Source: Bdellovibrionales bacterium
GTDB taxonomy: Bacteria > Bdellovibrionota > Bdellovibrionia > Bdellovibrionales > UBA1609
Assembly: GCA_050249195.1 (NCBI GenBank)
Contig: JBFWQY010000013.1
Span: forward strand, 24,293 to 88,292
Direction of reading: 5' to 3'
Length of the DNA stretch: 64,000 nt
Made by a program: the position numbers and the translations under genes. The stretch's first letter is position 1; each line of letters opens with the position of its first letter. This document shows, in pieces, positions 40,440 to 60,239 of the stretch. The notes beneath the pieces were generated by a model. It was not told the origin of the DNA. It did not search any database and saw only the letters and a list, made by a program, of their open reading frames with translations.

Positions 40440-40460
40440 CTCACTTATTTCCTTATCAAC

Positions 40461-40477
40461 GTGATACATTGTATCAC
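40461..40477 (-). promoter_or_regulatory. 17-bp near-palindrome, copy 1 (minus strand GTGATACAATGTATCAC; extended -10 TGATACAAT)
   Basis: Exact string read from the sequence and cross-checked against overlapping ORF translations. Lies 21 nt upstream of the 40439 start. Confidence 0.6.
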
Positions 40478-40664
40478 CTATAAACAGAAAAGTGAAAAGG
40501 GTAAAATTGAAAAAGCGAAATTTGAAATGTCGCGCCAGCTCCCTGGATGGAGAGCGCACTGCCTGCGAATTTGGCTTCAACTATATATTGGGGTGATAAA
40601 TCTTAGGTGGATTCTTAGTCTTAGTGTTGGGTTTAAGCCTAAAACAAAGACTTTGACAGTCTTA

Positions 40665-40681
40665 GTGTTACATTGTATCAC
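40665..40681. promoter_or_regulatory. 17-bp near-palindrome, copy 2 (minus strand GTGATACAATGTAACAC), overlapping a plus-strand TTGACA-N17-TATCAC promoter
   Basis: TTGACA at 40653-40658 and TATCAC at 40676-40681 (plus strand). The minus-strand TACAAT at 40677-40672 overlaps that -10. Lies 28 nt upstream of the plus-strand ATG at 40710. Confidence 0.55.
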
Positions 40682-40709
40682 TTTTATTAAACCTGCATGG
40701 AGTGAAACG

Positions 40710-41168
40710 ATGGCAAAGCCAAAAAACGAAGATTGGGAATTGGGAGAGCAGTGGGAAAGTTTTCGGGTAAAGGAGAGCGATGACCTGATGGCCCTTTTGA
40801 GTGATGTCGAGGGGAATCGTGGGGAGTTCATCCGTAACGCCCTTTTGAAATTCTATGAAGGGAAACTTCTCATCGATTGTCCAACTTGTGAGGGCGAAGG
40901 TCAGATTTATAGCGGCAGCGGTAAAGGACAGACCCCCTCCAAAAAGAAGGGTAAGGACGGCAAAAGTAAGGTGTTCACCTTTAGATCCGACAGCGGACTC
41001 CGGAAGGATCTCGCAAAGGCCAAAGACAAGGGTGAGACCATTAAGATGTCGCTTGCTGTAGCACTATCAAAGGAGCACGTCTTGGAATGTCCGACTTGCC
41101 GGGGCGTTGGCAAAATTATTGGTGGCCCAAAACTTAGAAAATCAGTGCTGGCTAAGTTTTCGACTTAG
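40710..41168 (+). CDS. RHH-like DNA-binding protein with two DnaJ-type CxxCxGxG zinc-finger motifs (candidate prophage regulator)
   Basis: 152 aa starting at MAKPKNEDWE. RGEFIRNALLKFYEG resembles a CopG/Arc RHH helix. CPTCEGEGQ and CPTCRGVGK are CxxCxGxG repeats. GGAG RBS. Confidence 0.55.
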   Translation: MAKPKNEDWELGEQWESFRVKESDDLMALLSDVEGNRGEFIRNALLKFYEGKLLIDCPTCEGEGQIYSGSGKGQTPSKKKGKDGKSKVFTFRSDSGLRKDLAKAKDKGETIKMSLAVALSKEHVLECPTCRGVGKIIGGPKLRKSVLAKFST

Positions 41169-41220
41169 AAAATTCTAAAAATCTTAAACTATCTGACGGA
41201 CTCTGCCCGCAAAGGACTAA

Positions 41221-42273
41221 ATGGACGAGATTATCATTATTGCGACCTGCCTATTTTTGAATGCTCTTTTTGCGGCCTATGAGATGGCGTTTGTTTCTAT
41301 CCCAAGATCAGAACTTCGAGCATTAGCAAAGGCCGGAAACAAGGATGCCAAAACACTTCTATCGCTGAGAGAAAGCCCAGAAAGAACCCTCTCCGTAATT
41401 CAAATCGGAATCACCCTAGTGGGCGCAGTTGCCGCTGCTATCGGCGGAGCTGGGGCCGGAGAAACCATTGAGCCTTATTTTAGACAAACTTATGGCATGC
41501 CGGAGAGAACTGCCGAAGCTCTGTCGGTTATACTTGTCGTTCTTCCGATCACATATATGAGCGTGGTCGTCGGAGAGCTTGTGCCCAAGACGCTTGCGCT
41601 CAGAAACCCTGCAAAGATAGTCCTGGCAGGCGCAAGGATCCTTTTTTTCGCTGATCGATTTCTCTCGCCAGTGATCACCACCCTAGAGTGGTCTACTAAA
41701 AAGATATTGAAAGTCTTTTTTCGCAAATCGAAGATGGCTCCACCTTCAGAAAATGCACCAATCGAAATTGATAGCTTCTCGCCCGTACATCAAAAATTCA
41801 TGCTTAACATGGCGGGTATTGAGAAGAAAAATACCAGGGACATTCTTCTGCCTTGGCCGCAGGTCATTTCAATTAAAAAATCAGCTACAATAGATGAAGT
41901 CACACAGGCTGTTGTAAGTTCGGGGCATACACGGCTGCCAGTAAAAGATGACGGTCAAGTAGCAGGGGTATTGCACACGAAAGAATTTATTGCGCTCAAA
42001 GAATCCGGTGAAGTTAATTGGCAAAGTATTATTCGTCCCGCTCTGACCGTACAGCCAACGGATTCGGCCTTGGGGGTTATGCGTTTACTCCAAGATAAAA
42101 GATACCACATGGCAATCGTCGCACTGCCATCGGGCGAGAGACTTGGAATTGTAACTTTGGAAGATATTCTCGAAGAAATTGTAGGTGATATTTTTGATGA
42201 AGACGACGACGACCGTGTGCGAAGAGTTTTTGCAGCAAAAATCAAGTCACGAGTCGTCCCGAAAGAGGAGTAA
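41221..42273 (+). CDS. CNNM/DUF21 transmembrane domain plus CBS-pair protein (TlyC/CorB-like), no CorC_HlyC tail
   Basis: 350 aa. The N-terminus IIIIATCLFLNALFAAYEMAFVSIPRSELRAL is typical of DUF21. CBS-like C-terminal half (GHTRLPV...MAIVALPSGERLGIVTLEDILEEIVGDIFDE). Confidence 0.8.
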   Translation: MDEIIIIATCLFLNALFAAYEMAFVSIPRSELRALAKAGNKDAKTLLSLRESPERTLSVIQIGITLVGAVAAAIGGAGAGETIEPYFRQTYGMPERTAEALSVILVVLPITYMSVVVGELVPKTLALRNPAKIVLAGARILFFADRFLSPVITTLEWSTKKILKVFFRKSKMAPPSENAPIEIDSFSPVHQKFMLNMAGIEKKNTRDILLPWPQVISIKKSATIDEVTQAVVSSGHTRLPVKDDGQVAGVLHTKEFIALKESGEVNWQSIIRPALTVQPTDSALGVMRLLQDKRYHMAIVALPSGERLGIVTLEDILEEIVGDIFDEDDDDRVRRVFAAKIKSRVVPKEE

Positions 42274-43401: not shown

Positions 43402-44082
43402 CTACAAACCATTTTCCGTAAACTCAAAATGCATCGGATCTTTTCTCTTAAAATTCCCGCCCCAATAAAAGCCTTCTGATTCAAAAATCTCGACGATCTC
43501 AGAATTCATGTCTCCATCCGCACCAAGAGGATTTGTTTTAGCGTTATGATCAACTGCAATTCCCCACGAGTGCATAGAGAGCTTTTTTGCTCCCCTCGTG
43601 TAGCGAAGATTATAACACCCATCAAATGAGTAGAGTTTGTCTGACAAGTCGGCATGAACAATGGCCTGATAGATATTCTGGAAAAACTGAATCAAAAGTT
43701 TATTGCACCAGAAACCATGCTTTTCGTCCTTCTGGTAGGTAAAGACGTGGTTAAGTTCCGGTGGGGTTTCGCAGAAGCCGCCATAAGCCTTCCAATATCC
43801 ACTTTCAAGAGGATCTCCGAACAGTTTGTAGAGTTCATCTCGTGACCGAGGAACAACCAGTTCAGGAATGTGCGGATTCGTATTGGGAAAAAGTTTTTCC
43901 CAAGTGACAGGACCGACTACTCCGTCGGCGTTGATCTTGTTTCTGATTTGAAATTCAACGACCGCCAATTTTGTATTGTTACCAAAAATGCCATCTACTT
44001 TACCGATGGGATGTCCCAACTGCTTTAATGTCTGTTGGATCTTTTGAACGTCTTCACTTCGTGAACCTATTTTGAAAATCAT
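43402..44082 (-). CDS. Endolysin: PG_binding_1 domain plus M15-family (VanY/D-Ala-D-Ala carboxypeptidase-like) peptidase
   Basis: GSRSEDVQKIQQTLKQLGHPIGKVDGIFGNNTKLAVVEFQ is the PG-binding repeat. SMHSWGIAVDHN and DPMHFE are the M15 metal ligands. Confidence 0.85.
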   Translation of the reverse strand: MIFKIGSRSEDVQKIQQTLKQLGHPIGKVDGIFGNNTKLAVVEFQIRNKINADGVVGPVTWEKLFPNTNPHIPELVVPRSRDELYKLFGDPLESGYWKAYGGFCETPPELNHVFTYQKDEKHGFWCNKLLIQFFQNIYQAIVHADLSDKLYSFDGCYNLRYTRGAKKLSMHSWGIAVDHNAKTNPLGADGDMNSEIVEIFESEGFYWGGNFKRKDPMHFEFTENGL

Positions 44083-45143
44083 AGATCTACTCCAGTGAAG
44101 GCCGACTCTGGCTCTTCTGAAAAGTGATTAAAAAGTGGTGCATCAGAAATGATTTTTGACCGTGCAAGCTCGACGTATTCAGGATTAAGTTCGACTCCAA
44201 CGAAACTACGATTGTGCTTTAGGGAAACGACTCCGGTGGTGCCGGATCCACAAAAGGGATCAAGTATGGTGCCGCCACTTGGACATCCCGCAAGGATGCA
44301 AGGTTCGATAAGCTTTTCAGGGAAGACAGCAAAATGAGCGTCGCTTGAACAAGCTGTGCTGACGGTCCATACGGATCTTTTATTTCGCCCATCTTCTAAG
44401 TAACTGCCATCATCTTCTCGTCCAGAATGAAGGCGTGTTCCATAGCCTGAATGCTTATTTCGACCACCAAAAACCGCTTTCATGGGGCCATTGGTTTTCC
44501 CCGGCACTCTTGAGCTGCCTTCTTGATGTTCAATATCTTGTGAAAGTCGTTGAACCGTAGACTCGGCGACGGGCTCTTTGATGGCGTCGTTGTCAAAATA
44601 ATATCTGGGCGATTTGCTTAGAAGAAAAAGATATTCGTGCGCCTTCGTGCAGCGATCCTGTACTGATTCGGGCATCGCATTGGACTTGGACCAGATAATG
44701 TCTTGCCTCAAATACCAACCTTGCGCTTGCAGGGCGAAGGCGACACGCCAGGGAATACCGACAAGGTCCTTGGGTTTTAGAATGGAATGAAACTTCAACG
44801 CTCCTTTGAATCCTATTCCAGAAACGGATCCAGCTCCGCGATTGGATTTCTGCTTTCGACTAACTTCTTTGGTATTTCCACGGTTATTGCCACCACCATA
44901 GTATGTGTCGCCAAGATTCAGCCAAAGAGTTCCTTTAGGCTTTAGGATCCTCCGAATTTCCTCAAAAATGACGGATAAATTTTGAACGTACTCTTCTGGA
45001 GTGGACTCTAAACCAAGCTGATCTTCCGCCTTGTAGTCGCGGAGGCCCCAATAGGGAGGAGAAGTTATACAACAATCAATGGATGAATTCGGAAGACTCT
45101 TAAGAATGCCTTGGCATTTGCCACTAAGAATCTTCCATCCCAT
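44079..45143 (-). CDS. DNA methyltransferase, N4/N6 family (beta class), no cognate nuclease seen
   Basis: Motif IV TSPPYWGLRDY is near the N-terminus and motif I ILDPFCGSGTTGVV is near the C-terminus. SPPY favours N4-cytosine but cannot exclude N6-adenine. Confidence 0.85.
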   Translation of the reverse strand: MGWKILSGKCQGILKSLPNSSIDCCITSPPYWGLRDYKAEDQLGLESTPEEYVQNLSVIFEEIRRILKPKGTLWLNLGDTYYGGGNNRGNTKEVSRKQKSNRGAGSVSGIGFKGALKFHSILKPKDLVGIPWRVAFALQAQGWYLRQDIIWSKSNAMPESVQDRCTKAHEYLFLLSKSPRYYFDNDAIKEPVAESTVQRLSQDIEHQEGSSRVPGKTNGPMKAVFGGRNKHSGYGTRLHSGREDDGSYLEDGRNKRSVWTVSTACSSDAHFAVFPEKLIEPCILAGCPSGGTILDPFCGSGTTGVVSLKHNRSFVGVELNPEYVELARSKIISDAPLFNHFSEEPESAFTGVDL

Positions 45144-47324: not shown

Positions 47325-47891
47325 TTAAGTGGACTCACTGCCGGAGCCTCCCTTTGATCCTTGTTTCTTTTCCGAAATAATGACCAAATTTTCGCTTATC
47401 CGTTTGATCTCAGATTTCATGTTCAGGATCTCTTCGCGGTGTTGATGCATGGCTTTCGCTCCGAGGCTTAGGCTATTGTGATGGGCCTCAACGGTTTTCT
47501 GCACTTCAGAGACATGAGTGCAGAGATTCTTTACTTGGGAGGCAGTTTCATCGAACTGGGTTTTTAACTGTTCGGCTTTGCTGTTGACCTGCTCAAATGC
47601 GCCCTCGATTTGAATGGCCTTTTTATGGATTTGAAAAAGCTCGTGGTTCACTTTTCCTTCAAACCCAACCATTGCCTTTTTTATTTCGAGAGAATCCTTC
47701 TTAATTTCTGATGCTGTAGTTTCCATTTTCTCAGCCGATGTCTTTACGTCCTTCGCATGTTCATCGAGCTTTTCATTTACAGAATCCTTGAATTGGTCGT
47801 GACGATTTACAAAGCGAACTAAGAACCACAGCGCGAGAGCCGTGGCAGCAGGTGCAATCCAATAGGAAAAAGAGACGAAAAACTCTTTCAT
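47325..47891 (-). CDS. Membrane-anchored coiled-coil protein (188 aa)
   Basis: N-terminal TM (YWIAPAATALALWFLV) followed by a long heptad-like region. Confidence 0.5.
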   Translation of the reverse strand: MKEFFVSFSYWIAPAATALALWFLVRFVNRHDQFKDSVNEKLDEHAKDVKTSAEKMETTASEIKKDSLEIKKAMVGFEGKVNHELFQIHKKAIQIEGAFEQVNSKAEQLKTQFDETASQVKNLCTHVSEVQKTVEAHHNSLSLGAKAMHQHREEILNMKSEIKRISENLVIISEKKQGSKGGSGSEST

Positions 47892-48125: not shown

Positions 48126-48668
48126 TTAGAAAATTGAAAAGGCCATAATTCTCACTTTTTCGATTCTTAGTGTAAGGCCGCTTGCCCCGCCGTTGATGCG
48201 GAACCCGTACTGCCTACGACCTGTCAAATCGCCGTCCTCATAATCGATAGTCCAAAGGGAGCTTGGCGGGAGCATGTTACGACCGAACGGACCTGTTTGT
48301 GTCCCCGGTTGCCAGGTTGCGCTCGTGAGATCGTTCGTTGGTGTGCTGCCGTTCGTGCCTTTAGTAAGGCGAAGTTCGTAAAATCCCTGGCCCGTAGAGT
48401 TTGCATCCCCTCCAATACCTCTCAATTGTGTGTCGGCCTTATCCACAACCAAACCCACAAAGACAGGCCGTCCATTCTCTCCGGCAAAATCAATGAATTG
48501 AACGGGTGATAGTAACGCTCCAGTGGTCGTTTGTGTTCCAAGCCCCTGGCTGAGTAAAATGCTGGTGCCCCCTCCTACAGAAATACTTGAGGTTCCGATG
48601 ACGGTAGTTCTCTTTTTCAAGAAGGTTGAATTTATCTCTTTGAGAAGTGCAGAATCGAAAATTCCCAT
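48126..48668 (-). CDS. Tail-fibre-associated protein (180 aa)
   Basis: G/T/S-rich. Immediately follows receptor-binding paralog B, overlapping it by 1 nt. Confidence 0.45.
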   Translation of the reverse strand: MGIFDSALLKEINSTFLKKRTTVIGTSSISVGGGTSILLSQGLGTQTTTGALLSPVQFIDFAGENGRPVFVGLVVDKADTQLRGIGGDANSTGQGFYELRLTKGTNGSTPTNDLTSATWQPGTQTGPFGRNMLPPSSLWTIDYEDGDLTGRRQYGFRINGGASGLTLRIEKVRIMAFSIF

Positions 48669-49600
48669 TAAGCCTCCGTCACGATCCGAATGTTGTTGTC
48701 TATGCCGTTATCCTCAATGACTTGAGAGGGCGCTATCCAACAATCCGCAAGTTGAATTTGATTTGCGTTGAAAGTGAGTTTTCTGTTGAAGCGTAGTCCT
48801 CGAACGATAGATCGCTCTGAACCTGCTTGAAAGTTCAGGATACCTTCAATTTGTGAGGCATAACCGGATCCTTCGATTCGAAGTCTTTTGGAAATATTCA
48901 CGCCAGTAGTAGTGCCGACAATTTTAAAAGCTGCCCACTCATCAAAGGTCGTTGCGAAAAAGCCAGCACCTTCGACATCGTCGAATAAGTATCCTTGTGT
49001 CTGGATTGGGCGAGCTGTGAAGAATGTCATTTGAGCGCCGCCAGTATCGAACACATTTTGCTTGGTAGAGAAAGCGTAAGTCGTAGATGGAGTGAGAACA
49101 AAAGGTGAAGGGAGATTGAAGTTCGTAAATGTATTGTAGTTCAGGGGATTAGGAAGTGCGCTGAAAAGAACTGCATTGGCTGAAGCAATAAAGCCTCCAA
49201 TGCCGCCGACAGGAATTCCTCCAGATGTATTCCAGAGATCGACGACGATACCTGGAGTTCCTGTTATCGTTCCACTATTACGACCCACATTCAGCTGGAG
49301 ATGAGTCATGGTTGTTGGAAATGTCGGAGTCGTAAAAATATCTCCCCGACGCTCTCCCTGGTTATTAAATAGTACATTGGATCCAGTTTGTGGCCGGAGT
49401 TTCTGGGCAATATTGAACGAGATCACTTGGGCAGGCGTGAACGTATTTGCCAATATCAACATAGATTGTCCGTTGGACAATGAATCATGCGCCACTTGAA
49501 GATCGGAGTGCGTCGCTAGTCCTGCAGATACTTGCGCGGGCGAACCCACCACAGCATCAAATTTTAAACTTTTGAAATCAGATTTCGGTAGTTTCGGCAT
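48668..49600 (-). CDS. Tail fibre / receptor-binding protein, paralog B (310 aa)
   Basis: Start refined to MPKLPKSDF at 49600, which has an AAGGTG RBS. Shares N- and C-terminal motifs with 51468-52487 and with the C-terminus of the 1942-aa fibre. Confidence 0.6.
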   Translation of the reverse strand: MPKLPKSDFKSLKFDAVVGSPAQVSAGLATHSDLQVAHDSLSNGQSMLILANTFTPAQVISFNIAQKLRPQTGSNVLFNNQGERRGDIFTTPTFPTTMTHLQLNVGRNSGTITGTPGIVVDLWNTSGGIPVGGIGGFIASANAVLFSALPNPLNYNTFTNFNLPSPFVLTPSTTYAFSTKQNVFDTGGAQMTFFTARPIQTQGYLFDDVEGAGFFATTFDEWAAFKIVGTTTGVNISKRLRIEGSGYASQIEGILNFQAGSERSIVRGLRFNRKLTFNANQIQLADCWIAPSQVIEDNGIDNNIRIVTEA

Positions 49601-49602
49601 TG

Positions 49603-50505
49603 TCACCTTACCTTCGCCATAAGAATGGGGTCGAAAACCGTATTGAGGTTTAAAGACCAGTTCATTTGTCCTGACGAGAGTGTGATAGTCGAGTTGCTCG
49701 CAATCGCTGTGACGGTTGTCGAATCGCACCACACCTCTCCATATCCGGCGTTCGCAGCGGCACCGGCATTTCCGGTTCCAAACGTCACAGTTCCTGTGGT
49801 GGCAAAGCTACCGTCATAGAACCTGGCTGTGCCAGCCGCGAGAACAGAACTTCCGCCTGATGGTGCATGCGTAAGCGTCCACCCATATCTGGCTCCGTTA
49901 AAAGGTAGATTTCGACCTGAACCGCCGCTCATTCCATATACTGGATTGATCGTTGAGCCAAATGAGGTGACTGGTCCCGATGATCCATCATACCGGATCC
50001 CTGTCATATTACCGTTCGTTGGGTTCCAGAAATTTAAGATTGGTCCCACTTTCCCAAATCGAGCAATGTCATTCTGCCCGGAAGATAAATCTGCTCCGTT
50101 CTTAAAGACTCCTAGATATCGCCATTTAGTGAATCCAGCCGGGCCAGGCTGAGTGATTGGATCGCGTGTAGTCGCCTTCAAAATGTAAGCGGTTCCGACC
50201 CCCGGCACTGCATATAGGGCGTACCATTGGTTTGGGGCTTCTGCTCCTGTATCGAGCCCATTTGAACCCGTGCCGTTTGCAAAATCGAAAACGAGATCTC
50301 CCGATTGATAAATCGTGGCGTCAGCGATTAATCCACTTGTTCCGATAGCGATCTTCGATCCAGGCATGAGAACTTGTGATGCCGATTGATATTTATAGTC
50401 GGCAACCTGTTCTCCCAATACTCCAAGAAGAGCAGAGAAATTCCCCGTAAGGGTGGCGAGATTTGTTGCAACTGTTGGATCAACTAAATTGGTCTTTACT
50501 CCCAT
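49603..50505 (-). CDS. Tail fibre-like protein (300 aa)
   Basis: G/S/T/N-rich, beta-rich sequence located in the fibre cluster. Confidence 0.5.
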   Translation of the reverse strand: MGVKTNLVDPTVATNLATLTGNFSALLGVLGEQVADYKYQSASQVLMPGSKIAIGTSGLIADATIYQSGDLVFDFANGTGSNGLDTGAEAPNQWYALYAVPGVGTAYILKATTRDPITQPGPAGFTKWRYLGVFKNGADLSSGQNDIARFGKVGPILNFWNPTNGNMTGIRYDGSSGPVTSFGSTINPVYGMSGGSGRNLPFNGARYGWTLTHAPSGGSSVLAAGTARFYDGSFATTGTVTFGTGNAGAAANAGYGEVWCDSTTVTAIASNSTITLSSGQMNWSLNLNTVFDPILMAKVR

Positions 50506-50517
50506 AAATATCTTTCC

Positions 50518-50949
50518 TTAAGTGTTTCCAAAGTCTTCAACCAATTGATCGATGTCTGCTTCCGATAGTGGCGCTCCAATAACGATCTTTCTTTGTTCTG
50601 TAGTTAGCTGATCCCAAACTGAGTTAGCTGCCGCCGATTTTGCATTCTCGATTGCAAGAGGTCTGGCTGTTGCGAGATCAATTTTTTCTTGCTGATCTTC
50701 TTGGTCTATTGAACTCCAGATTGATTCAAACAAAGTATCCTCTTCGGAAGACAGTTCGTCCCTGAAACAAAACCTGATCTCTCCTTCATTGTCCGATTTG
50801 ATCCAGCACCAATAGAGTGGAAGTGACTCAGCGCCTGAACCATGATTGAAGGCAACCAGCCTACTGAAATTTGTTGCAAGCTCCTTGTCTAAATCAGTAA
50901 GCGATAGGGGAAACGGGATTATCTTCTGTTTGATAAATGGCATATCCAT
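50518..50949 (-). CDS. Acidic protein (143 aa), tail-fibre assembly chaperone candidate
   Basis: Start refined to MDMPFIKQK at 50949, which has a GGGAGGAG RBS. The chaperone call is based on position only. Confidence 0.4.
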   Translation of the reverse strand: MDMPFIKQKIIPFPLSLTDLDKELATNFSRLVAFNHGSGAESLPLYWCWIKSDNEGEIRFCFRDELSSEEDTLFESIWSSIDQEDQQEKIDLATARPLAIENAKSAAANSVWDQLTTEQRKIVIGAPLSEADIDQLVEDFGNT

Positions 50950-50950
50950 T

Positions 50951-51466
50951 TTAGAACTCCTCCCAAACAATGAATGTGCAAGCCTCAAGACTTATCCCGC
51001 CTCCGGCTCCAGGCCCTCTGAACATGAGAGTGAAAGTGTGCGAGCCAGCTGGAACTGTTTTCTTAATGAACAAGCCGGGAGTACCAAGACGCATCTGAAT
51101 AGTTCCAGATCCGATCTGGGTTAGGTTGTATTCTGATAGAGAAGGAACGTCCGTTTCATATCTGAGACCCAGCCCCCATGTCATTGCAGAAACCGAAGAC
51201 ATATTTGCTTGAACGTAAGCAAAGCTATTCGGTGATCCTAAGAATCCTGCATTGATAATCCCACCACGAGTAACCAAATCTATCGCTGAGTTTGGGACAT
51301 CAATGAAGGAAGTCGCATTTGTAGATTGACCGCCGACAAAACGACTTCCTACCTGGCCGATTTGCAATCCCGTTTGTCCAGCGGCAGGTCGAGACTTCTG
51401 ACGGATGATGCCGTTTACTATTTCAAGAGTGAAATTGTCTGGGCGTGTGCCTACTGTCGTGAACAT
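50951..51466 (-). CDS. Tail-fibre-associated protein (171 aa)
   Basis: Start refined to MFTTVGTRP at 51466, which has a GGAGGAAAG RBS. Follows receptor-binding paralog A. Confidence 0.45.
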   Translation of the reverse strand: MFTTVGTRPDNFTLEIVNGIIRQKSRPAAGQTGLQIGQVGSRFVGGQSTNATSFIDVPNSAIDLVTRGGIINAGFLGSPNSFAYVQANMSSVSAMTWGLGLRYETDVPSLSEYNLTQIGSGTIQMRLGTPGLFIKKTVPAGSHTFTLMFRGPGAGGGISLEACTFIVWEEF

Positions 51467-51467
51467 A

Positions 51468-52487
51468 TTAGCTTTCCTCCGCGACAATGGCAGCAGTATC
51501 AATTCCCTGATCAATTGGGCTTAAGCCGCTCGCATGCCATCCGGTTAAGAAGTTTTGGTTGCCGACAATATAGACCTGCCCGCCATACCGGAGGTTTTCG
51601 AGTCGTGATCGATTTCCACCTAATGTGATCGCCGTATTAAATTTAGAATCAAATCCAAGGCCGACCCAATTGAATCTCTTTGTGAAGACATAGCCTCCGA
51701 CAGTCGAAGTATTGAGATTGTAGTTTGTGAATTCTAAATTCCCTCCAGAGGTCCAAGAGAATCCATTGTTGACGCTGTTTACAGTTCCAATGCCAGGGAT
51801 AAGAGTTGCTGGTGTTCTTCTTCCGACGATGACATTGCCGCCTCCAAAATTTAAAACGAAGTCAAAAGCAAATGCATAAGTTCGATTTGGATATAAAATC
51901 GTGGGTGGAAAAGTGAAGGTGTGTCTTATCCCTGTTGCCACAGGAAGCTGTGCTGGCAAAAATGAGTTTGAATCAGCAAGTTTTACTGTAGGAAGGTTGG
52001 CTGATGTTTCCCAGAGAGTTAAAAGCGTTTGAGCGGTGGTGCTGACAATTCCATTATTTCGAATCTCAACGTCTATCGAGTTTAAAATGCGAATTTGGTT
52101 TGCATGAGAGGGAAAGAGCGTCCCGAAGAGATTACTATTTCCGTCAAGACCGGCGTCTGAGTTCGAAACCTCAGTTTTATTGAGAAATACTTCGGAACCA
52201 CCAGCGGGTCCTGTAAAAGTATTTCGCAAAACCAGAATAGACGATCCTTCAGGCAAGGTATCGTGTGCGACTTGTGGATTACTAAAATCCGCAGCACCAG
52301 AGGCCACATCAGCAACAGAGCCCAAGATCCCATCAAACTTAATGGACTTTCCTGCGGCTGCAACAAATTGGAGTAGTTCATCACTTAGATGACGCTCTTG
52401 AATGCTTTTATCAGGAATGACGTTGTCGACAGAAACTGTCTTTTGCCTTACAGAGCGTCCCTTTCCTAGATCATAGATTTCTCTCAT
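51468..52487 (-). CDS. Tail fibre / receptor-binding protein, paralog A (339 aa)
   Basis: SIKFDGILGSVADVASGAADFSNPQVAHDTLPEGSSILVLRNTFTG and the C-terminal WHASGLSPIDQGIDTAAIVAEES align by eye with paralog B. Confidence 0.6.
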   Translation of the reverse strand: MREIYDLGKGRSVRQKTVSVDNVIPDKSIQERHLSDELLQFVAAAGKSIKFDGILGSVADVASGAADFSNPQVAHDTLPEGSSILVLRNTFTGPAGGSEVFLNKTEVSNSDAGLDGNSNLFGTLFPSHANQIRILNSIDVEIRNNGIVSTTAQTLLTLWETSANLPTVKLADSNSFLPAQLPVATGIRHTFTFPPTILYPNRTYAFAFDFVLNFGGGNVIVGRRTPATLIPGIGTVNSVNNGFSWTSGGNLEFTNYNLNTSTVGGYVFTKRFNWVGLGFDSKFNTAITLGGNRSRLENLRYGGQVYIVGNQNFLTGWHASGLSPIDQGIDTAAIVAEES

Positions 52488-52497
52488 CCATTACCTC

Positions 52498-55400
52498 TTA
52501 GTCGTCCGTGAACGAATACTGATTATCCGTTCCATTGTTCGTGACCGTTGACGCAGCAGTGATCCAATTGTCAGTGGCCCGATTTTTATTCCCGTTGAAA
52601 ATTACGTTGCCCGTCACTTTTAGATTCTTGAAGAGGTTCGCATTGCCATTGATCGTGAGGGCTCCATTTAGGACTGAGCCATTTCCTTTGCCTTCAAGAA
52701 AAAGCTGACTCTTCGTCCAAACCACTGCTCCGACAACTGTCGTTGCGAGAAGAAAAATCTTTCCAGGAGTTGATAGGAAGTCATGAGCTTGCTGGATCGA
52801 ACTAAAATCAGCTTTGCCGTTAGCAACGTCGAGTGCTGATCCGACAATCACGTCAGCAAATGCAGCAATTCGTAAGGCGTTTTGATCTTTCGTGTCTAGA
52901 GTTCCCTGGCGTCTCAAAGCGTGAATACTGACCACAGAGGTTGTGAGGTCTTCAGAAAATCGAATTCTGTTCGTTCCCACTTCTCTGTAAAAGAGCGTTT
53001 TGGCAGGATCAAGCCCAGCGTAATATCGCGGTATCTCAAGACCTTCGACAATTACGGTAAGGTCTCCGTTAGGCTTCCCAAGATTCAAGTTGGGAACGAA
53101 TGAGAACCCTAATTCAACTTCGCTGACGTTTAAACTAAGTGGGACGTCAAAGACGGTCGAAATTCCTAAGATACCATTGGCATTTGAACTGTCGCTAATG
53201 ATGAACCCTGAGTCGATGTATCCGCCATTATTGAACCCTTCGAGTTCATAGATACTTGCTTTGTAATTCAAAAGATTTGCGGCAGTAGTGACAACGTCGC
53301 TCGTTGGACTACAGAAGAATACAAAAAAGCATCGCTCGTTGTTTGTAGAAGTGGGAAAGACGACTTTCGGCAGAGTGCCCGAAGCTACAGGTCGCTCCAC
53401 AGCTTGTGAAAATGTTGAAGAGAGGGGTTGATTCAGATCCGTCACAAGTCCTGAACTTGACCCGGCGACCGCAATCCGCGATGCCTGATCCAGATCAGGG
53501 AACATATCGTTTGCGGCGAGGCTATCCTCATAGCGCACAACCGCTTCCAGCAGATCTCTTGGACCAAAGATTTTTGAGAATGGTAGATTATCGAGGAGGC
53601 CCGTCGGATCGCCTAGATTGACAAGATCCTTAGTCCACACGGCTTGAGAGAACATGATCGGAGCAACCGTGAAGACTTGCGAGAAGGGCGTATCAATAAC
53701 GTAATCGGTAGGGCCTTGAATAATTGTGATCCGTCGAAATTCTGGTGCGGTAACTTGCTCAAACAGTTCATAGAAGAGAACGCTTGTGCTATCAGCTAAT
53801 GACCACACTGAACCGTCGTAAATGTATCTAGCCTGGCCAGAGCCTGAACTGTCTCGAAGAATTCGGATCACATTTCCTGAAACAAAACCGGAAATGTAAG
53901 TTGTGTCAGCTTCGAACACGAGAAATTTAAGACCGGAAAGCGACTGGTTTTGAACATTCAGACTAAAAGCCGTGACTCCAAGCCCAAATGAACTTGCAGG
54001 AATTGTCATGGACGCAATGACGTCGAGAGGGTTGGTCGAAGGAAGACCGCTTATTGAATGCACCAATTTTACGACAACATTGCCGACAGGGTTTCCGTCG
54101 CGGAATCCTTTGATGACAATCTTGTTGATCTTTTGCCCTGTAAAATTGAAGTCGCCAGCGATCCCTCTTTGTGTCGTATTGTTAAGATCGTCTCCGCCGT
54201 TTTGTACAGTTTGATTGACGGTCCTAACTACGCCTGGCCAATAAACGATGTCTCCAACCTGAAGAGTGAATGAAGGAACACCGCTGGGAGTGATCTTGTG
54301 ATCGCCAGGCACTCCGTCTGTGAGAGTAGATATACTTGGTGTAACCACATCTTGACCCGGCACTCTTGGAACCTCGGCGGGAAAATTTGCTGTATGTTTT
54401 ACAGTTCTAAAGAGCTGAAGGTCATCGTAAGATCCAGACATCGACTCGGTAGCATCGTGCTTAGACCCAAGTGACATTGTGCTGTTGAAGAATAGGAAGT
54501 TTTGATCGCTCGTAAGATTAACGGCGGCTGATCCGATTAAAAGTCCATTGACGAAAAAGCGTTGGACATTTGTGACGTAGTCATAATCGAATTCGATTTC
54601 ATAGGTCTGGCCATTCACTATTGTCGGGAAGTTACCGAAGTTCGTGTTGAAAATATTGTTGCTGGAGTCAACCGAGGTTACTTGAACAATACCAGTCGTC
54701 GCCAATAGTCTCAGCGTAATTTCAGATTGGTTTCCTGTATCCTTGGCTCCAAACCATGATTTGTTAGTTACAGGAAAACCGCTGAAATCAGGAATCCACT
54801 TGAATCGAATGGTTCCGATATCATCATTGAGCCCTTGACCGAAGTTGGCGTACTGAGCGCGGCCACCGCCTCCAGGAACATTAAGGCGGTTTGATGAGAT
54901 CGTCGCACCGCCAGTTAAGACTCTCGCGGGAGCGCCAGCAGCAAAGTCAGCATTCGTAGAGGCGTTAACAAAAGTGTCTCTGAAAGTTTCATCAACTGTA
55001 GAAAGAACCCGTGGAATTTCACCTGTAAAGTTAGCGGTGTGCTGTATGGTCTTAAAGATTTGCAAGTCATCAAACTGGAAGTTGCCAGAAAAGTTCCCGT
55101 TCCCATCAGAGCCAAGAACAAAGTTCGCACTTACCGTATAGCTGGCACTTCGAGAGATAGTGCCCGTGTGAGTGGATCCGACCTGCACACCATTGACAAA
55201 AAGTCTTTGAGCGCCTGAGACAAAGTCGTAACTGAACTCCACCTCGCATTCAACTCCAGGGGTAACGCTTGGAATACCGAAGTTCGAATTGATATTTGTA
55301 AAACCAACGCTGTCGAATGCTTGATAAGTGAGTGCCCCGGAAGGTTGGCGTTGTAATGTCAGAGCATTTTCTGCAGCAGGTTCTCTCGCCTCGAACAACA

Positions 55401-58326
55401 CCTGAAATCCGCCAGGAGCATTTGGAATCCATTTAAATCTGATAGTGCCAACGCGAGGGTTGATATTTCCATCAGGGCCTGCAGTGAACGCTTGAATCCG
55501 AGTACCGCCCGAAGAGCCTGATGTGGTGGTGAGTTTTCCGGGATTCGCAGTGATATTGCCGCCGCCTAAGAAGAAAAATCGCTCATCGCCTTTTGAAATC
55601 AAAGCCTCAAGAAGAACGCCGACACCCGTAAAGTCACAGCGAAGGAGTTCATTGTTGTTGAATGGATCAGGGACCGTTCTGACTAGAGTATTGAGAGAAA
55701 CGACTAATTGGGGCTGATTGATGCCGCCTTCTGTAGTTCCAAAGGTAATATCAAAACCAGCGGTTTCACTTCCGACAATGTTCAAAGATGAAGAATCAAT
55801 TGATGATAATGCCTCAAGAAACCCAATTAACCCTGCTGCATTGGTGCCCGCAGGAATATTGGTTGTTTCATTCCCGTCATGACTTAGACGGTAAAATCCC
55901 CCGGTCGGAACCGCACTGAATATCAGGCGCTGAACTTCATTGACTTGGTTGATGATTGTAACGGAGGCTGTCTTGGATTTGTCACACTGAAGGCGATAGG
56001 CTCCATCCGTGTCGTGGTTTGCATTCGTGAGAGGATCATTGACCTTCGATGTAGGATCAGCGGGCGGTGTTGTGAGGTCATCGGTGACGGCTGCCTCAAA
56101 ACCGTCTTCAGGCTCAATCGGTGCTCCGCCTCCGCCACTCACAACTGGAGTTGCTGATCCTCCGCCTTTAGCTCCGAACCTTACGATGTTCGATTCAGAA
56201 ATAGCGAGAATGGTTCCGGCTCCGCCTGCGCCATTATCTTGAACAACCAAAATACCAATCGGTAAATTGTCCCCAAGATCTGGATCAGTGGCCGCTCCCT
56301 CAGTCGCACCGTCATTTGTCGGTAAGATAACGACCAATTCATTGTTATCATCAAGTGCAAGACCGTATTTGAAAAAGCGATTGGGAGCGGATGGTGTATA
56401 GGGGGTGAAGTTTGCTCCCCCGCCAGTGACGACACCCATTGCAAAGTTCGCTGTACCTCCAGCATAAACGACAACTTCCCCATTATTTGTCAGTGCAAAT
56501 TTGCTGGAGTCAGCGGCTAGAATTTGTGCCGGATCAATGATGACAGCAAAATTGTTGGGATTGTTAGGTCGTACCTTTAAGAGCTTTCTCGATAGAGTTT
56601 CATCGTAAGCTTCGTTGAGACTGGAATTCACGACGATGGGTGTGGTGTCCGCCTTCTTATAAACTGAGCCAAGAGCTGTCAGCTGATCACGGGCGGCCCT
56701 GTGATCGCCGAACTCGTTCACTTCTGTAAGAATCTGTCCGCCGTGTCTTGTGATCTTGAATGACTCGCCAGGATCGTTGTTGTCGGTGTCAAGATCGATT
56801 GAAAGTAGGCTTGCGGGCAAAGAGATATTTGTGCCGAAGAGATTTAAATTTCCATTCTCAAGAAGCTCAAAGAGGGTTTGTAGTCCACCATTCTTGCTGA
56901 CCCTGAAGGTTTCTCCCGTAACAAGATTGTCGGTATCGAGATCAATATTAAAGATAGGATTTTTAGCGAGGATATTTCCAAACAACCAGAGGTTTCCCGA
57001 TTCCAGGATTCGGAAGATTTCATTTAAGGGCGCTACAGAGTTGTTATAGAACTGATAGCCATGACCAGTTCCGTTGTTGTCGCTATCGATCAAGAAGATC
57101 ATGTCGGTCAGCGATTGAAGTTTCGCATTGAACGTGACCACGTCGACGTTGATGTCGTCACCAAGGGTGGAGCTTCCCTTAATATTTTGATCGCCTTCTA
57201 CAACAATCGTAGATTGGAAAATTGAACTGACGGCTGCAATGCTTTGAAAATATGCGTTTCCGTGAGCATCTATAAATGCAATAGGATTTCCCATTGCATT
57301 TCGAAGTCTCCACTTGATTCCTTGGATGCCAGATCCACCAGAAGACTGAAACAGCGTATGGGAAACAGGCACATCCGGCGAATCTTCATCACTCGCATTG
57401 ACCTGGGTATCAAGCTGAACTCCAGGCACGATTTGCTTTGTGGCAATTCTCTCTGGCGTTATCAAAGTGTGAGTGCCGTCAACGGAGCTGTGCTCCTCGA
57501 AAAAGAGAGAAACGAGACTTGGGAAACTCACTGCATGATTGTTGACATCGGTTTCATCAAAAGAACTGGGGGTGTTGCCAGAACCTGCACCAGTGACAAT
57601 GCCAAGAAATAGAATGTTGTTGTCGAGGCGCAGATCAGTGTTTCGCCTGATTGTCGGTCCTTTCAGGAACACCTGATAATCCGAAGGATCCGTTGAGATA
57701 TTGCCGAGGGTTTGACCGAGAGCCGTGAGTGTCTCGATTTTGTTATTTACTCCATCCCAAATCACAGTCAGCTCTTCAAAAGATTGAGCTTGATTTTGAG
57801 CGCGCTTAAGCCAGACAACGGCTTTTCTACCTGCGTGACTAACGCCAGGTTCACAAACGCTATCAACGATAAGAGTCAGAGTTTCATCACCATCATCAAC
57901 AACAGAGTTTGGATCGGCAACCTCTCCAATCGATTCTTCTTTGAATGTGTACTTTATCTCGCCCGTGCGGACGTTGATTTCTGTTTCGCGGGGAAGATAG
58001 TTGAAGCGAAGTCCGACGTAGTATGGAATCGAGAGTGCATTCTCAAAGGCGATAAGATTCGCATCGATGGGATCAAGAATAAGGTAATTTCCTTGAGCAC
58101 CATCGGTCCCCCGCAGTGGAGACGAAATATCAAACGTGTCGGGCGTGGAAGCCGAAAGGATATTTGAAACAAGAATGTTCGGCTCAAAAACACCATTAAC
58201 CGGGAAGAGCTTTGTAAAGACGTCATGGATCTTCTTTTCGAGAAAATCAAAAAAGTTTTCGGTGATCTGCTGCTGGGTCAGGAACTTTTTAAGGTATATG
58301 TCGACTTTTCGATTACCTGTGGCCAT
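52498..58326 (-). CDS. Giant tail fibre/adhesin (1942 aa) with internal repeats, two LamG/ConA-like domains and a C-terminal receptor-binding-type module
   Basis: Single long ORF downstream of palindrome copy 5. Internal repeats are described in the findings. Confidence 0.8.
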   Translation of the reverse strand: MATGNRKVDIYLKKFLTQQQITENFFDFLEKKIHDVFTKLFPVNGVFEPNILVSNILSASTPDTFDISSPLRGTDGAQGNYLILDPIDANLIAFENALSIPYYVGLRFNYLPRETEINVRTGEIKYTFKEESIGEVADPNSVVDDGDETLTLIVDSVCEPGVSHAGRKAVVWLKRAQNQAQSFEELTVIWDGVNNKIETLTALGQTLGNISTDPSDYQVFLKGPTIRRNTDLRLDNNILFLGIVTGAGSGNTPSSFDETDVNNHAVSFPSLVSLFFEEHSSVDGTHTLITPERIATKQIVPGVQLDTQVNASDEDSPDVPVSHTLFQSSGGSGIQGIKWRLRNAMGNPIAFIDAHGNAYFQSIAAVSSIFQSTIVVEGDQNIKGSSTLGDDINVDVVTFNAKLQSLTDMIFLIDSDNNGTGHGYQFYNNSVAPLNEIFRILESGNLWLFGNILAKNPIFNIDLDTDNLVTGETFRVSKNGGLQTLFELLENGNLNLFGTNISLPASLLSIDLDTDNNDPGESFKITRHGGQILTEVNEFGDHRAARDQLTALGSVYKKADTTPIVVNSSLNEAYDETLSRKLLKVRPNNPNNFAVIIDPAQILAADSSKFALTNNGEVVVYAGGTANFAMGVVTGGGANFTPYTPSAPNRFFKYGLALDDNNELVVILPTNDGATEGAATDPDLGDNLPIGILVVQDNGAGGAGTILAISESNIVRFGAKGGGSATPVVSGGGGAPIEPEDGFEAAVTDDLTTPPADPTSKVNDPLTNANHDTDGAYRLQCDKSKTASVTIINQVNEVQRLIFSAVPTGGFYRLSHDGNETTNIPAGTNAAGLIGFLEALSSIDSSSLNIVGSETAGFDITFGTTEGGINQPQLVVSLNTLVRTVPDPFNNNELLRCDFTGVGVLLEALISKGDERFFFLGGGNITANPGKLTTTSGSSGGTRIQAFTAGPDGNINPRVGTIRFKWIPNAPGGFQVLFEAREPAAENALTLQRQPSGALTYQAFDSVGFTNINSNFGIPSVTPGVECEVEFSYDFVSGAQRLFVNGVQVGSTHTGTISRSASYTVSANFVLGSDGNGNFSGNFQFDDLQIFKTIQHTANFTGEIPRVLSTVDETFRDTFVNASTNADFAAGAPARVLTGGATISSNRLNVPGGGGRAQYANFGQGLNDDIGTIRFKWIPDFSGFPVTNKSWFGAKDTGNQSEITLRLLATTGIVQVTSVDSSNNIFNTNFGNFPTIVNGQTYEIEFDYDYVTNVQRFFVNGLLIGSAAVNLTSDQNFLFFNSTMSLGSKHDATESMSGSYDDLQLFRTVKHTANFPAEVPRVPGQDVVTPSISTLTDGVPGDHKITPSGVPSFTLQVGDIVYWPGVVRTVNQTVQNGGDDLNNTTQRGIAGDFNFTGQKINKIVIKGFRDGNPVGNVVVKLVHSISGLPSTNPLDVIASMTIPASSFGLGVTAFSLNVQNQSLSGLKFLVFEADTTYISGFVSGNVIRILRDSSGSGQARYIYDGSVWSLADSTSVLFYELFEQVTAPEFRRITIIQGPTDYVIDTPFSQVFTVAPIMFSQAVWTKDLVNLGDPTGLLDNLPFSKIFGPRDLLEAVVRYEDSLAANDMFPDLDQASRIAVAGSSSGLVTDLNQPLSSTFSQAVERPVASGTLPKVVFPTSTNNERCFFVFFCSPTSDVVTTAANLLNYKASIYELEGFNNGGYIDSGFIISDSSNANGILGISTVFDVPLSLNVSEVELGFSFVPNLNLGKPNGDLTVIVEGLEIPRYYAGLDPAKTLFYREVGTNRIRFSEDLTTSVVSIHALRRQGTLDTKDQNALRIAAFADVIVGSALDVANGKADFSSIQQAHDFLSTPGKIFLLATTVVGAVVWTKSQLFLEGKGNGSVLNGALTINGNANLFKNLKVTGNVIFNGNKNRATDNWITAASTVTNNGTDNQYSFTDD
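54361..55449 (-). repeat. Tandem duplication of a roughly 150-aa LamG/ConA-like domain inside the giant fibre (copies at 55006-55449 and 54361-54816)
   Basis: Both copies start GTIRFKWIP and end HTANF(T/P)(G/A)E(I/V)PRV. Shared internal motifs: Y/CE(I/V)EF(D/S)YD(Y/F)V...QR(F/L)FVNG. Confidence 0.7.
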
Positions 58327-58394: not shown

Positions 58395-60239
58395 TCATAA
58401 ATTAAAGCCTGGCAGCACATGCCTTACGTCAATGGGAAGCTCAAGCATCTCGATTTCTCCAGTCTGCATGGTCGTAAGAGCTGTGGTCTTAAACCCGAAC
58501 TTGCCCTTTTCAAAACTTGCATCCCTTAGTGAATGGATCCGATTGCTATCAAAATAGGTCTGGAGCAACGTGTCGTTAGACATAGAGTCAAAACTCGTTT
58601 GAATCGTAAATATATAGGAAGCCTCTGGGACTATATCCACGGGGACCGGGGCTGCGATTTGAATAGAAACTCCGCCCACAGTCTTATGAAGAGAAAGCTG
58701 ACGGTTAATTGTGTCGACCCGGTATTCGTAAAAGTTGTTCAGGTCTTGAACGAAAAATAGAACTGAAAAAACTCCGCCGACGGTAAGAGTGTCATTGGCC
58801 TTTACCTGAAGAACGATGTCTTTAAAATCCTCGTCTCCCAGAACGTCAGTCACAACTATGGAGTTCGGAGCGACTTCCAGCTGCTTATCCACATTGACTA
58901 GGGAGCTTCCGACGAGAGTGACGAAACGCCCACTTCCACTACTAAAATCCTCAAAGAAACTAATGAAGATGGCATTTACTCTTTCAGAGCTTGGCCGCAT
59001 CAAGTTCAGGATTCGAAGCATGAGAATCTTATTCAAATCCCCTTCATCGACAATGCGAACGTCAGAGTAGAATTCATCAAGCCGTTCTTCGATGTATTCA
59101 ATAAAACCTGTGATTGGAACAGTGAGAGTTGGCTGGCTTACTAGGTAAACGTCATTTAAAGAAACTCTTAAGTTATCGATATCTGCAAGCAGGTTGTTCA
59201 CAATGACACCAGAACCACCAATTACAATTTGACTACTATTTGTTAGGTCTCCAAGGGAACTAAGTGGAACAAGAGGAGTTGATTCTGCACCTCCATAGTA
59301 GAGCCTTGCGCCTGCACTTCGATCTATGACGAGGGCAAGATGCCGGACTTGCCCGTCGTCAATGTCGGCAATTGGGATAAGAGTATCGCTGACTATATTC
59401 ACTCCATCATTGAGTTGGAAGGAGATGGAGTTTGCAGCGGGATTGATTGTGATTTCAACTCCTTTGCCGGAGAAATCCTTCTTGTAAAAAACGGTTTTTG
59501 AAACTTGTGAAGTGTCTATTCGTAAAAATAGCTCAATAGTGAAATCGCCACTCAGATTATATTTCGACGTATTTGGAAAAGAGATCACTCCACCTTGGAG
59601 CTTTGCGTATTTGTGACTGCCTTGTGGAAATCCTGTCGGTGGGGTTTGAAAGAAACCAATCGGTCCACTTGATGTCGCATGATTCCCAGTCAGACTTCTG
59701 TCTTTGAGATTTCCTTCGAAAGTTAAAAGACAAACTACATTGTTTGAGGGGTCTTGGCTGGCCTCTACTCCTGGAACAGAAATGAGCCAGGAGTCCTCGC
59801 CCAACTGTTCCTCTCCAAAGGCTTTCTCACCAACGATAAGCCGAAAATCAAACCAGTTAAAAACGCGCACTGATTTTCCAGTAAAGATACGAACAATATC
59901 CTGATATCCAGGCTCAGTTCCTTTTTCATTCCAAATGGGAATTCCAACGGAGATCAGTTTTCTAAGGTCGGCCTCAGTCAAATCCTGAGTGATATTGTTA
60001 AGCTCCTTAGTGAAGCCTACATGATCTTTCAAATAGACCAAAAGGTCGGCTCTGGTTTTAGCCGGATTTTTAATATTCTTTAGCTCTTCACGTTTGGCAG
60101 AAATCTGCTCAAACATCGCCTGCGGTCCAGTCAGAAACCGCTCAAGAAAGTTATCTCCCTGCTCCACATCGAGAAGGCGAAGCGGCCTGTGGAGGAAGGT
60201 GAAAATATCGTGCTGAAAGTTAGGATCAATTTTCGCCAT
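58395..60239 (-). CDS. Baseplate/tail protein (P2 gpI-like position) with a LamG/ConA-like insertion
   Basis: 614 aa and follows the J-like gene. GDFTIELFLRIDTSQ...VRHLALVIDRSAGARLYYGG is Laminin_G_3-like (about 59250-59565). Confidence 0.6.
   Translation of the reverse strand: MAKIDPNFQHDIFTFLHRPLRLLDVEQGDNFLERFLTGPQAMFEQISAKREELKNIKNPAKTRADLLVYLKDHVGFTKELNNITQDLTEADLRKLISVGIPIWNEKGTEPGYQDIVRIFTGKSVRVFNWFDFRLIVGEKAFGEEQLGEDSWLISVPGVEASQDPSNNVVCLLTFEGNLKDRSLTGNHATSSGPIGFFQTPPTGFPQGSHKYAKLQGGVISFPNTSKYNLSGDFTIELFLRIDTSQVSKTVFYKKDFSGKGVEITINPAANSISFQLNDGVNIVSDTLIPIADIDDGQVRHLALVIDRSAGARLYYGGAESTPLVPLSSLGDLTNSSQIVIGGSGVIVNNLLADIDNLRVSLNDVYLVSQPTLTVPITGFIEYIEERLDEFYSDVRIVDEGDLNKILMLRILNLMRPSSERVNAIFISFFEDFSSGSGRFVTLVGSSLVNVDKQLEVAPNSIVVTDVLGDEDFKDIVLQVKANDTLTVGGVFSVLFFVQDLNNFYEYRVDTINRQLSLHKTVGGVSIQIAAPVPVDIVPEASYIFTIQTSFDSMSNDTLLQTYFDSNRIHSLRDASFEKGKFGFKTTALTTMQTGEIEMLELPIDVRHVLPGFNL

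Follow-up and report, generated by a model that had tools for sequence, protein, structure and literature searches.

The C-terminal end of a giant prophage tail fibre (1942 amino acids, aa) and two smaller proteins encoded downstream of it, A (339 aa) and B (310 aa), were found to carry homologous copies of one small domain, referred to here as the module. The copies lie on the minus strand of a 64,000-nucleotide stretch of DNA from a Bdellovibrionales bacterium (a metagenome-assembled genome; contig JBFWQY010000013.1, positions 24,293 to 88,292; hereafter the window). A protein from an NCBI metagenome-assembled genome, encoded on a 118-kb contig, is 100% identical to A. As a whole, the observations are probably best explained by an ancient paralogous fibre-end domain of about 120-130 residues, split by an insert in A and B, which would serve as a fibre tip in cis or in trans and whose genomic region has been reshuffled. 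Sequence comparisons place the module at the very C-terminus of tail-fibre proteins from a large group of mostly uncultivated phages.

The similarity of the three copies was determined by BLASTP, with E-values computed with compositional adjustment. A and B were 26% identical over 318 aa (E 9e-16). A matched the last 200 residues of the fibre in two collinear segments, corresponding to an N-terminal motif (41% identity over 78 aa, E 3e-10) and a C-terminal motif (35% over 75 aa, E 2e-6), and B matched the fibre C-terminus with E-values of 2e-6 and 4e-7 for the same two motifs. An alignment of eight sequences, including orthologues, had 18 invariant columns and contained the N- and C-terminal patterns quoted in the initial annotation; the fibre copy lacked the approximately 180 alignment columns that separate the two motifs in A and B. 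An independent profile, constructed from the fibre module and 50 unrelated metagenomic proteins and including neither A nor B, matched exactly three open reading frames (ORFs) in all six frames of the window. The fused copy at fibre residues ~1811-1942 (52501..52896) was matched in one piece (E 8.6e-43), while B (E 3.2e-40) and A (E 1.3e-21) were each matched as two collinear pieces. All three copies finish 1-2 residues from the stop codon.

A chance or compositional origin of this similarity, which the biased composition of the Gly/Ser/Thr/Asn-rich fibre sequence and the shortness of the single motifs might suggest, was ruled out by the compositionally adjusted BLASTP E-values (9e-16 to 4e-7) and by the three matches of the independent profile (1e-21 to 9e-43), and we regard its likelihood as negligible. 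The matches are also collinear, the secondary structure agrees and the motifs are kept in orthologues. The initial annotation had therefore located correctly three segments with common N- and C-terminal motifs, and their similarity is far beyond chance, showing at the level of sequence that the fibre C-terminus, A and B are true homologues. A recent duplication was rejected as the source of the three copies, since the scaffolds share only 36-37% identity and other phages carry closer relatives of each.

The extent of the module was established by an exhaustive HMMER search, in which a 124-position profile of the joined halves was compared with 1.84 billion representative proteins. The search recovered 525 clusters (at 50% identity) at E<=1e-3, 353 of them at E<=1e-10, and the domain architecture was tabulated for the best 150 of the 525. 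The module was contiguous and located at the extreme C-terminus of a longer protein (201-2283 aa) in 100 of these clusters, formed a stand-alone protein of 120-200 aa in 43, and lay away from the C-terminus in four (three near the N-terminus and one short of the C-terminus); overall it ended at the extreme C-terminus in 143 of the 150. The remaining match, P0067, was rejected as a family member: it is a cell protein with type IX secretion system (T9SS)/SprB repeats whose 12 partial matches were repeat-driven, and a second profile did not match it. The module was thus contiguous in the fibre copy and in 146 other family members, and among the best 150 clusters it was split by an insert only in the two clusters of A and B. 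Since the fibre copy and nearly all of the best clusters are contiguous, the N- and C-terminal motifs belong together as the halves of a single ~120-aa domain, and are not two cassette borders as had been proposed; they stand at both ends of A and B because an insert of about 165-172 aa interrupts that domain. On this comparative evidence A and B are rare variants of the module with a nested insertion.

The family consensus, DAVVGSAxQVxxGxATHxSIQxAIxAxxxGxxILxLxGTYTEN...IxGxGxxSxIxGTxT...LRxxGNxT...CW...TDxGTxNxxxxIQE, summarizes a diverse family, with a mean column identity of 24% among its members. Positions conserved in at least 90% of the 146 members were occupied by Gly, Ala, Val, Ile, Leu and one Asn; no Asp, Glu, Lys, Arg or His was invariant or nearly so in these members, and in the window copies several polar residues that are moderately conserved in the family are substituted. 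The fibre, A and B had no Pfam match at E<=0.1, the module had no NCBIfam or PHROG match, and the family members had no Pfam match, including Beta_helix, Pectate_lyase_3 and DUF1565. None of the module, A, B and the partner proteins described below was found in Pfam, PHROGs, NCBIfam, PDB sequences or GenBank phages. A typical module gave no tblastn match in the 50,697 genomes of GenBank phages, and the locus had no DNA match there. The module was found on IMG/VR viral contigs, in one case among Phage Tail Collar fibre genes. Two narrow peptide-pattern scans of species-representative genomes returned no match and one weak partial match (in a Pyrinomonadaceae metagenome-assembled genome), respectively. 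The module is a previously unnamed domain family, within the already well-known theme of mosaic, multi-copy adsorption genes in phages.

AlphaFold modelled fibre residues 1793-1942 from a 51-sequence alignment with a predicted local distance difference test score (pLDDT) of about 97 over the module, as a strand and two helices followed by a series of short strands. A Foldseek comparison of this model with the PDB returned almost entirely right-handed beta-helix proteins (best E 0.066). All of these neighbours were weak, and included pectin methylesterases (template modelling score, TM, 0.39-0.52), Pel9A (TM 0.54), the tail fibres of phage 7-7-1 (TM 0.60), and alginate, rhamnogalacturonan and PL6 lyases. 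Against BFVD the best E-value was 1.1e-3, and the matches were DUF1565 proteins, the pectate-lyase domain of Salmonella phage 38 (root mean square deviation 2.5 Å) and tail fibres. The module is thus predicted to be a short right-handed beta-helix, in which a strand-helix-helix cap at the N-terminus is followed by about three to four rungs; since all structural matches were weak, this assignment is one of fold class and not of homology. The C-terminal half of the module has only about 75-80 residues. The likeness to the start of a right-handed beta-helix noted in the initial annotation therefore holds for the fold class, but does not extend to a tailspike-type depolymerase, given the few rungs, the lack of conserved catalytic-type residues and the absence of a Pfam beta-helix match. 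The paper describing the phage 7-7-1 structure describes no comparable fibre-end domain (PMC12796354), and literature searches on phi812 and on Bdellovibrio prophages found nothing relevant.

Protein A (51468..52487) consists, from its N-terminus, of an anchor peptide (52350-52487), the cap half of the module (52203-52349), a nested beta-rich insert (51711-52202) and the C-terminal half (51471-51710). Protein B (48668..49600), which has orthologues in the related lineages L001, L004, L005 and L007 and starts at the ATG at 49600 as in the gene calls of the orthologous contigs (310 aa), comprises a short N-terminus with the cap half (49427-49600), the insert (48911-49426) and the C-terminal half (48671-48910). 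The AlphaFold model of A, based on 11 sequences, had a mean pLDDT of 68, with values of 85-95 for the scaffold on both sides of the insert; the fibre module and the model of A agreed in the secondary-structure elements that flank the insert. The insert itself was modelled as about eight strands with two disordered stretches (pLDDT 63-86), and residues 1-48 of A were disordered. Foldseek neighbours of the A model in the PDB were weak, namely a phi812 baseplate protein (E 3e-4, TM 0.30) and assorted jelly-roll/beta-sandwich domains.

The inserts of A and B share the same insertion point and are weakly homologous (E 3e-4). Among the orthologues of A, the insert was 62% conserved and the scaffold 38-43%. 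The B insert matched the NCBIfam model choice-of-anchor R (NF041539) with 19.4 bits and E 7.9e-4, below the curated cut-off of 30 bits, and 6 of 11 family members matched at E<=0.1 (best 2.5e-5), a lead for remote homology rather than evidence of membership. No Pfam match to the insert was obtained even at E 10. Derivation of the insert from another fibre domain was also considered and rejected: a hidden Markov model of the insert matched nothing in the fibre, the only marginal match being to the fibre of locus L020 (E 0.03).

Only nine clusters of A and B were found among 5.8 billion proteins, and their contigs represent the lineages L001-L007. A BLAST map of the genes downstream of the conserved baseplate genes revealed four arrangements. 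In the window and L004, the fibre with its fused module is followed by A, proteins of 171, 143 and 300 aa, B and a 180-aa protein. L005 and L006 have a fibre with a different C-terminus, a free 163-aa module, A, proteins of 173, 139, 590 and 62 aa, B and a 179-aa protein. L001-L003 have an L005-type fibre, proteins of 646 and 101 aa, A, proteins of 347 and 163 aa (the latter unrelated to the module), B and a 179-aa protein, and L007 has only a shorter fibre, B and a 177-aa protein. B with its partner of about 180 aa thus forms the constant core of the region in these gene maps.

The fibre of L004 (1941 aa) is 96% identical to that of the window. The L001 and L005 fibres are 58-59% identical to the window fibre over residues 1-1362 and 1529-1805, and have a different C-terminus past the same junction. 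The L007 fibre (872 aa) has N- and C-terminal parts in common with the window fibre and ends at the equivalent of residue ~1802, B being the next gene. The free module of L005 is 51% identical to the fused window copy (E 2e-35), and over its first ~85 residues it matches A's anchor and cap. The C-terminus of the L001 and L005 fibres was not accepted as a diverged module: hhalign aligned it in the expected register, but the match was not significant (E 0.028, probability 1.8%). These four arrangements identify the position just past a conserved SIHxxR junction as the point at which the module is fused, free, replaced or absent, and in the sequences compared they show fusion and fission of the module at the fibre junction. 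The junction closes a pre-module domain of about 280 aa (residues 1529-1805; 52912..53742, minus strand). Numerous unrelated phage fibres have the same domain directly upstream of the module; it was found there in the IMG/VR loci L011-L021 (phmmer E 1e-9 to 1e-33) and in 36 of 100 longer module-bearing proteins; in L017 it is encoded by a separate gene from a stand-alone module, among the Phage Tail Collar fibre genes.

The window and L004 are collinear at 80-93% DNA identity except between ~52250 and ~50550 on the minus strand, where identity falls to 61-72%. This block contains A from just past the cap motif and the genes of the 171- and 143-aa proteins; its left breakpoint lies in or just past the A cap motif and its right breakpoint at the boundary of the 143- and 300-aa genes. 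The proportion of synonymous differences (pS) in the block was 0.75-0.81 and that of nonsynonymous differences (pN) 0.15-0.20, compared with 0.39-0.59 and 0.00-0.045 in the flanking genes. The values of pS and pN were 0.78 and 0.20 for the A insert, 0.79 and 0.16 for the A C-terminal half, 0.81 and 0.17 for the 171-aa gene and 0.75 and 0.17 for the 143-aa gene; they were 0.61 and 0.009 for the A anchor and 0.72 and 0.073 for the A cap half. The fibre module had the lowest pN in the fibre (0.003), and pN was 0.000 in the C-terminal half of B. Since synonymous sites of the block are saturated too, the block derives from a more distant lineage and has not merely evolved faster, showing from these substitution patterns a block replacement by recombination. 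Consistent with block exchange, the A-173-139 unit of L005 is 63-78% identical to its counterpart in the window, yet the L005 fibre is only 58% and B only 49% identical.

The proposal that the region is swappable was thus borne out as a block exchanged between related phages, with one breakpoint beside the cap motif, and as a module that is fused, free or absent at the fibre junction, but not in the form of a cassette bordered by the two motifs. A repeat scan detected only chance-level repeats of 18-19 nucleotides, with no inverted repeats and no DNA repeats between the copies. As the genes also lie on one strand, nothing suggests an invertase-type or site-specific switch, and an invertible or shufflon-type host-range switch, as in the Mu G segment or the P1 C segment, was rejected.

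A single base separates the A stop codon from the ATG of the 171-aa gene (50951..51466), and the B stop codon overlaps the ATG of the 180-aa gene (48126..48668), so that on the evidence of these junctions both pairs are shown to be translationally coupled. The 171-aa protein has orthologues after A in L004 and L005 (73-76% identity); in L001 its position is occupied by an unrelated 347-aa protein. The third gene of the A unit, coding for the 143-aa protein (50518..50949), has orthologues in L004 (73%) and L005 (63%). The 300-aa protein (49603..50505), which lies between the two units and starts with MGVKTNL, is 93% identical in L004. B is invariably accompanied by the 180-aa protein, whose gene comes next in each of the four lineages (47-100% identity). 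All of these genes are on the minus strand. The two followers of about 175 aa, in which no clear similarity had been noted before, showed no similarity to each other by BLASTP or by hhalign profile-profile comparison. A common chaperone family for the 171- and 180-aa proteins was rejected accordingly, and neither had a Caudo_TAP/Tfa, Pfam, PHROG or NCBIfam match.

Some further features of these genes were observed. The 180-aa protein is 100% identical to its L004 orthologue despite a pS of 0.43 (ratio of nonsynonymous to synonymous substitution rates, dN/dS, 0.004), and its family comprises only four clusters in 5.8 billion proteins. The terminal Glu codons of the module proteins (GAGGA) double as the Shine-Dalgarno sequence of the next gene (window 48668 and 51466-51470, and the orthologous junctions of L001, L005 and L007); a constraint at the RNA level may thus act on some of the conserved '...QE/EE' ending. 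The MGVKTNL peptide of the 300-aa protein also heads the A-type protein of L005 (P0004), a homologue of the 300-aa protein adjoins module protein P0012 in L008, and in L020 the fibre that bears the module is followed by a homologue of the 347-aa protein of L001. By these gene neighbourhoods, accessory genes travel with module genes in distant phages (window 49603-50505; L005 10001-10915; L008 9168-9944; L020 8351-9400).

The module genes belong to a tightly packed operon, all on the minus strand, which encodes in order an 816-aa protein, a 614-aa baseplate protein, the 1942-aa fibre, A, the 171-, 143- and 300-aa proteins, B and proteins of 180, 75 and 188 aa. The 614-aa protein (58395..60239) matched Pfam Tail_P2_I (E 3.3e-5, above its cut-off) and Laminin_G_3 (E 5.7e-10), and these matches identify the operon as the baseplate and fibre module of a contractile tail. 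Baseplate genes lie directly upstream and lysis genes downstream, and the order is collinear in four related contigs. No enrichment of promoter-like or terminator-like sites was found in the operon, and no tRNAs were found at the locus. The fibre gene (52498..58326, from the ORF list) lies directly downstream of the baseplate genes and contains an internal duplication (54361-55464, minus strand), in which residues ~955-1107 and ~1166-1322 are 39% identical (E 7e-31); the orthologous L005 fibre matches Pfam Laminin_G_3 in this region. The 188-aa protein (47325-47891, minus strand) has an N-terminal transmembrane segment and a long coiled coil, with weak matches to DUF948 and to Rz-like spanins, and is retained downstream of the fibre genes in each of the four lineages.

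An N6/N4 DNA methylase gene (44079-45143, minus strand) separates the small post-fibre genes from the prophage lysis gene, an M15 endolysin with a PG_binding_1 domain (43402-44082); the absence of the methylase from the same spot in the otherwise collinear L004 suggests an indel or a moron. A TMEM106_N/zinc-ribbon-like gene and a CNNM/CBS gene (40341-42273, plus strand) lie between the lysis and replication modules of the prophage, and the former is probably phage cargo, as L001 and L004 also have a TMEM106_N-like gene downstream of their endolysin. The prophage begins at about 29 kb of the window and carries the replication genes YqaJ, AAA_24 and DnaB_C. Host chromosome occupies positions 1-28000, where AcrB, OEP and MFS efflux genes are found together with helicase/ATPase genes. 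Within it, the region adjoining the prophage (14400-27800) encodes a 640-aa HATPase_c_3 protein, a 557-aa ResIII/DEAD helicase, an orphan 1116-aa protein and a class-V aminotransferase, and could be a defence-type island.

In the explanation that we consider probable, the module would be a stable distal scaffold for the fibre tip, supplied either in cis, by fusion, or in trans, by a small protein whose flexible N-terminal anchor measures about 45 aa; stand-alone forms, A and B would dock through their N-terminal peptides. The insert of A and B would interrupt a turn of the first rung, forming an extra surface domain that may add or change binding specificity. A would work with the products of the 171- and 143-aa genes and B with that of the 180-aa gene, the virion would be multivalent, and the stretch from fibre to B would be a hot spot of recombination, where units can be acquired, lost, fused or replaced. 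It is only from the position of these genes in a tail-fibre operon that a role in receptor binding, multivalency or host range is suggested. A more general form of this proposal, to be taken as speculative and rather doubtful, is that the mini beta-helix is a general fibre-tip 'plug', used in cis, in trans by docking of the anchor on the pre-module domain, or as a chassis for a nested binding domain, with several tip types per virion and tips exchanged by recombination at the cap motif. If true, phages of predatory Bdellovibrionales would possess a natural and portable platform on which host range can change.

Several observations weigh against the explanation favoured here. The structural matches were all weak, both in the PDB and in BFVD, and the A insert was modelled with moderate confidence only. 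Among the orthologues of A this insert is better conserved than the scaffold around it, the reverse of what is expected of a hypervariable specificity domain. Each of the three scaffolds has nearer relatives than the other two, and the module is unusually conserved for a receptor-binding tip, being the best-conserved part of the fibre in the comparison with L004, with conserved positions that are core Gly, Ala and hydrophobic residues and one Asn.

A mainly structural role is a live alternative, although on balance we think it unlikely. The module would then serve assembly, as a nucleus for C-terminal folding or trimerisation, as a cap or as a platform for docking, and would not bind receptors; specificity would reside in the inserts, in the LamG-like repeats of the fibre or in the 171-, 143-, 300- and 180-aa partners. 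The retention of the domain across 525 clusters on very different upstream sequences, the structural nature of its conserved positions, its very low pN in the fibre and in the C-terminal half of B, and the existence of a small stand-alone form with a disordered N-terminal anchor agree with such a role. On the other hand, surface residues differ widely, as the low mean column identity indicates, which would still allow different specificities, and fibres usually bind receptors at their distal C-terminal position. An assembly role also overlaps with the fibre-tip scaffold that we favour and does not exclude it.

Enzymatic and disposable roles of the module are both unlikely. The fibre end, A and B might be pectate-lyase-type, tailspike-like depolymerases degrading surface polysaccharide, as the top structural neighbours are beta-helix polysaccharide lyases and esterases and the cap motif resembles the start of such enzymes. 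However, known beta-helix lyases and esterases have many more rungs than the few that fit in the short C-terminal half, no residue of catalytic type (Asp, Glu, Lys, Arg or His) approaches invariance, several moderately conserved polar residues are replaced in the window copies, no Pfam, NCBIfam, PHROG or PDB sequence match was obtained and the Foldseek E-values were not significant; we consider an enzyme of this type very improbable. Equally improbable is a role resembling that of the Peptidase_S74 domains, which in endosialidases and in the T5 L-shaped tail fibre act as intramolecular chaperones and are removed by cleavage once the fibre has folded. As with Peptidase_S74, a conserved C-terminal domain is common to otherwise diverse fibre proteins, but the module had no match to Peptidase_S74 (PF13884) or to any other Pfam family, its predicted fold is a beta-helix and it has no conserved Ser-Lys-type dyad. 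Its occurrence as a stand-alone protein, near the N-terminus (3 of 150 clusters), short of the C-terminus (1 of 150) and with a nested domain fits poorly with a disposable C-terminal chaperone.

The module family overturns no current view. It is a marker for the distal ends of tail fibres of uncultivated phages. It could improve the annotation of receptor-binding proteins in metagenomes, and it suggests a compact scaffold for fibre-tip engineering. In one phage group, one small fold brings together domain fusion and fission, nested insertion and block recombination.

Right-handed beta-helix tailspikes, lyases and esterases (P22 gp9, pectin methylesterase, PL6/PL9) resemble the predicted fold of the module in having a helix cap followed by three-stranded rungs (query-normalised TM 0.4-0.6), and the tailspikes also in their position within the phage adsorption apparatus. 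They differ in having ten or more rungs, whereas the module, of about 120 aa and three to four rungs, has no significant structural E-value, no Pfam match and no conserved catalytic residues. The tailspike beta-helix forms the body of the spike, while the module stands at the extreme C-terminus of long fibres or alone. The P22 tailspike has a 'dorsal fin', an extra domain that emerges from a beta-helix turn and contributes to the receptor-binding site, and the inserts of A and B are predicted to protrude from a turn in a similar way. Unlike the dorsal fin, they exceed their host scaffold in size (165-172 aa) and are orphan beta-rich domains with sub-threshold similarity to choice-of-anchor R.

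In T-even long tail fibres the tip is either built into the fibre, as in T4 gp37, or supplied as a separate gp38 adhesin, as in the T2/S16 type. The present system is alike in that the distal element may belong to the fibre chain itself or be encoded as a separate small protein immediately after it: fused in the window and L004, free in L005 and replaced by B directly after the shortened fibre of L007. However, the module has no sequence or fold relation to gp37 or gp38, and its attachment in trans is hypothetical. P2, Mu and P1 encode pairs of tail fibre and assembly chaperone (H-G, S-U/S'-U') with switchable cassettes, and here too fibre-end genes have a translationally coupled follower of about 175 aa, in two tandem pairs (A-171 and B-180). 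In contrast to those pairs, the followers match neither Caudo_TAP nor any other chaperone family and are unrelated to each other, and the genes lie on one strand with no repeats between the copies. Branched phages with multiple receptor-binding proteins, such as CBA120, G7C, SP6/K1-5 and PhiK64-1, carry N-terminal anchor domains; tandem adsorption proteins and portable N-terminal peptides are common to both, the A anchor being found on the L005 mini-module and the heptapeptide of the 300-aa type on the L005 A protein. Those phages conserve the anchor and vary the distal part, whereas here the conserved part is the distal scaffold.

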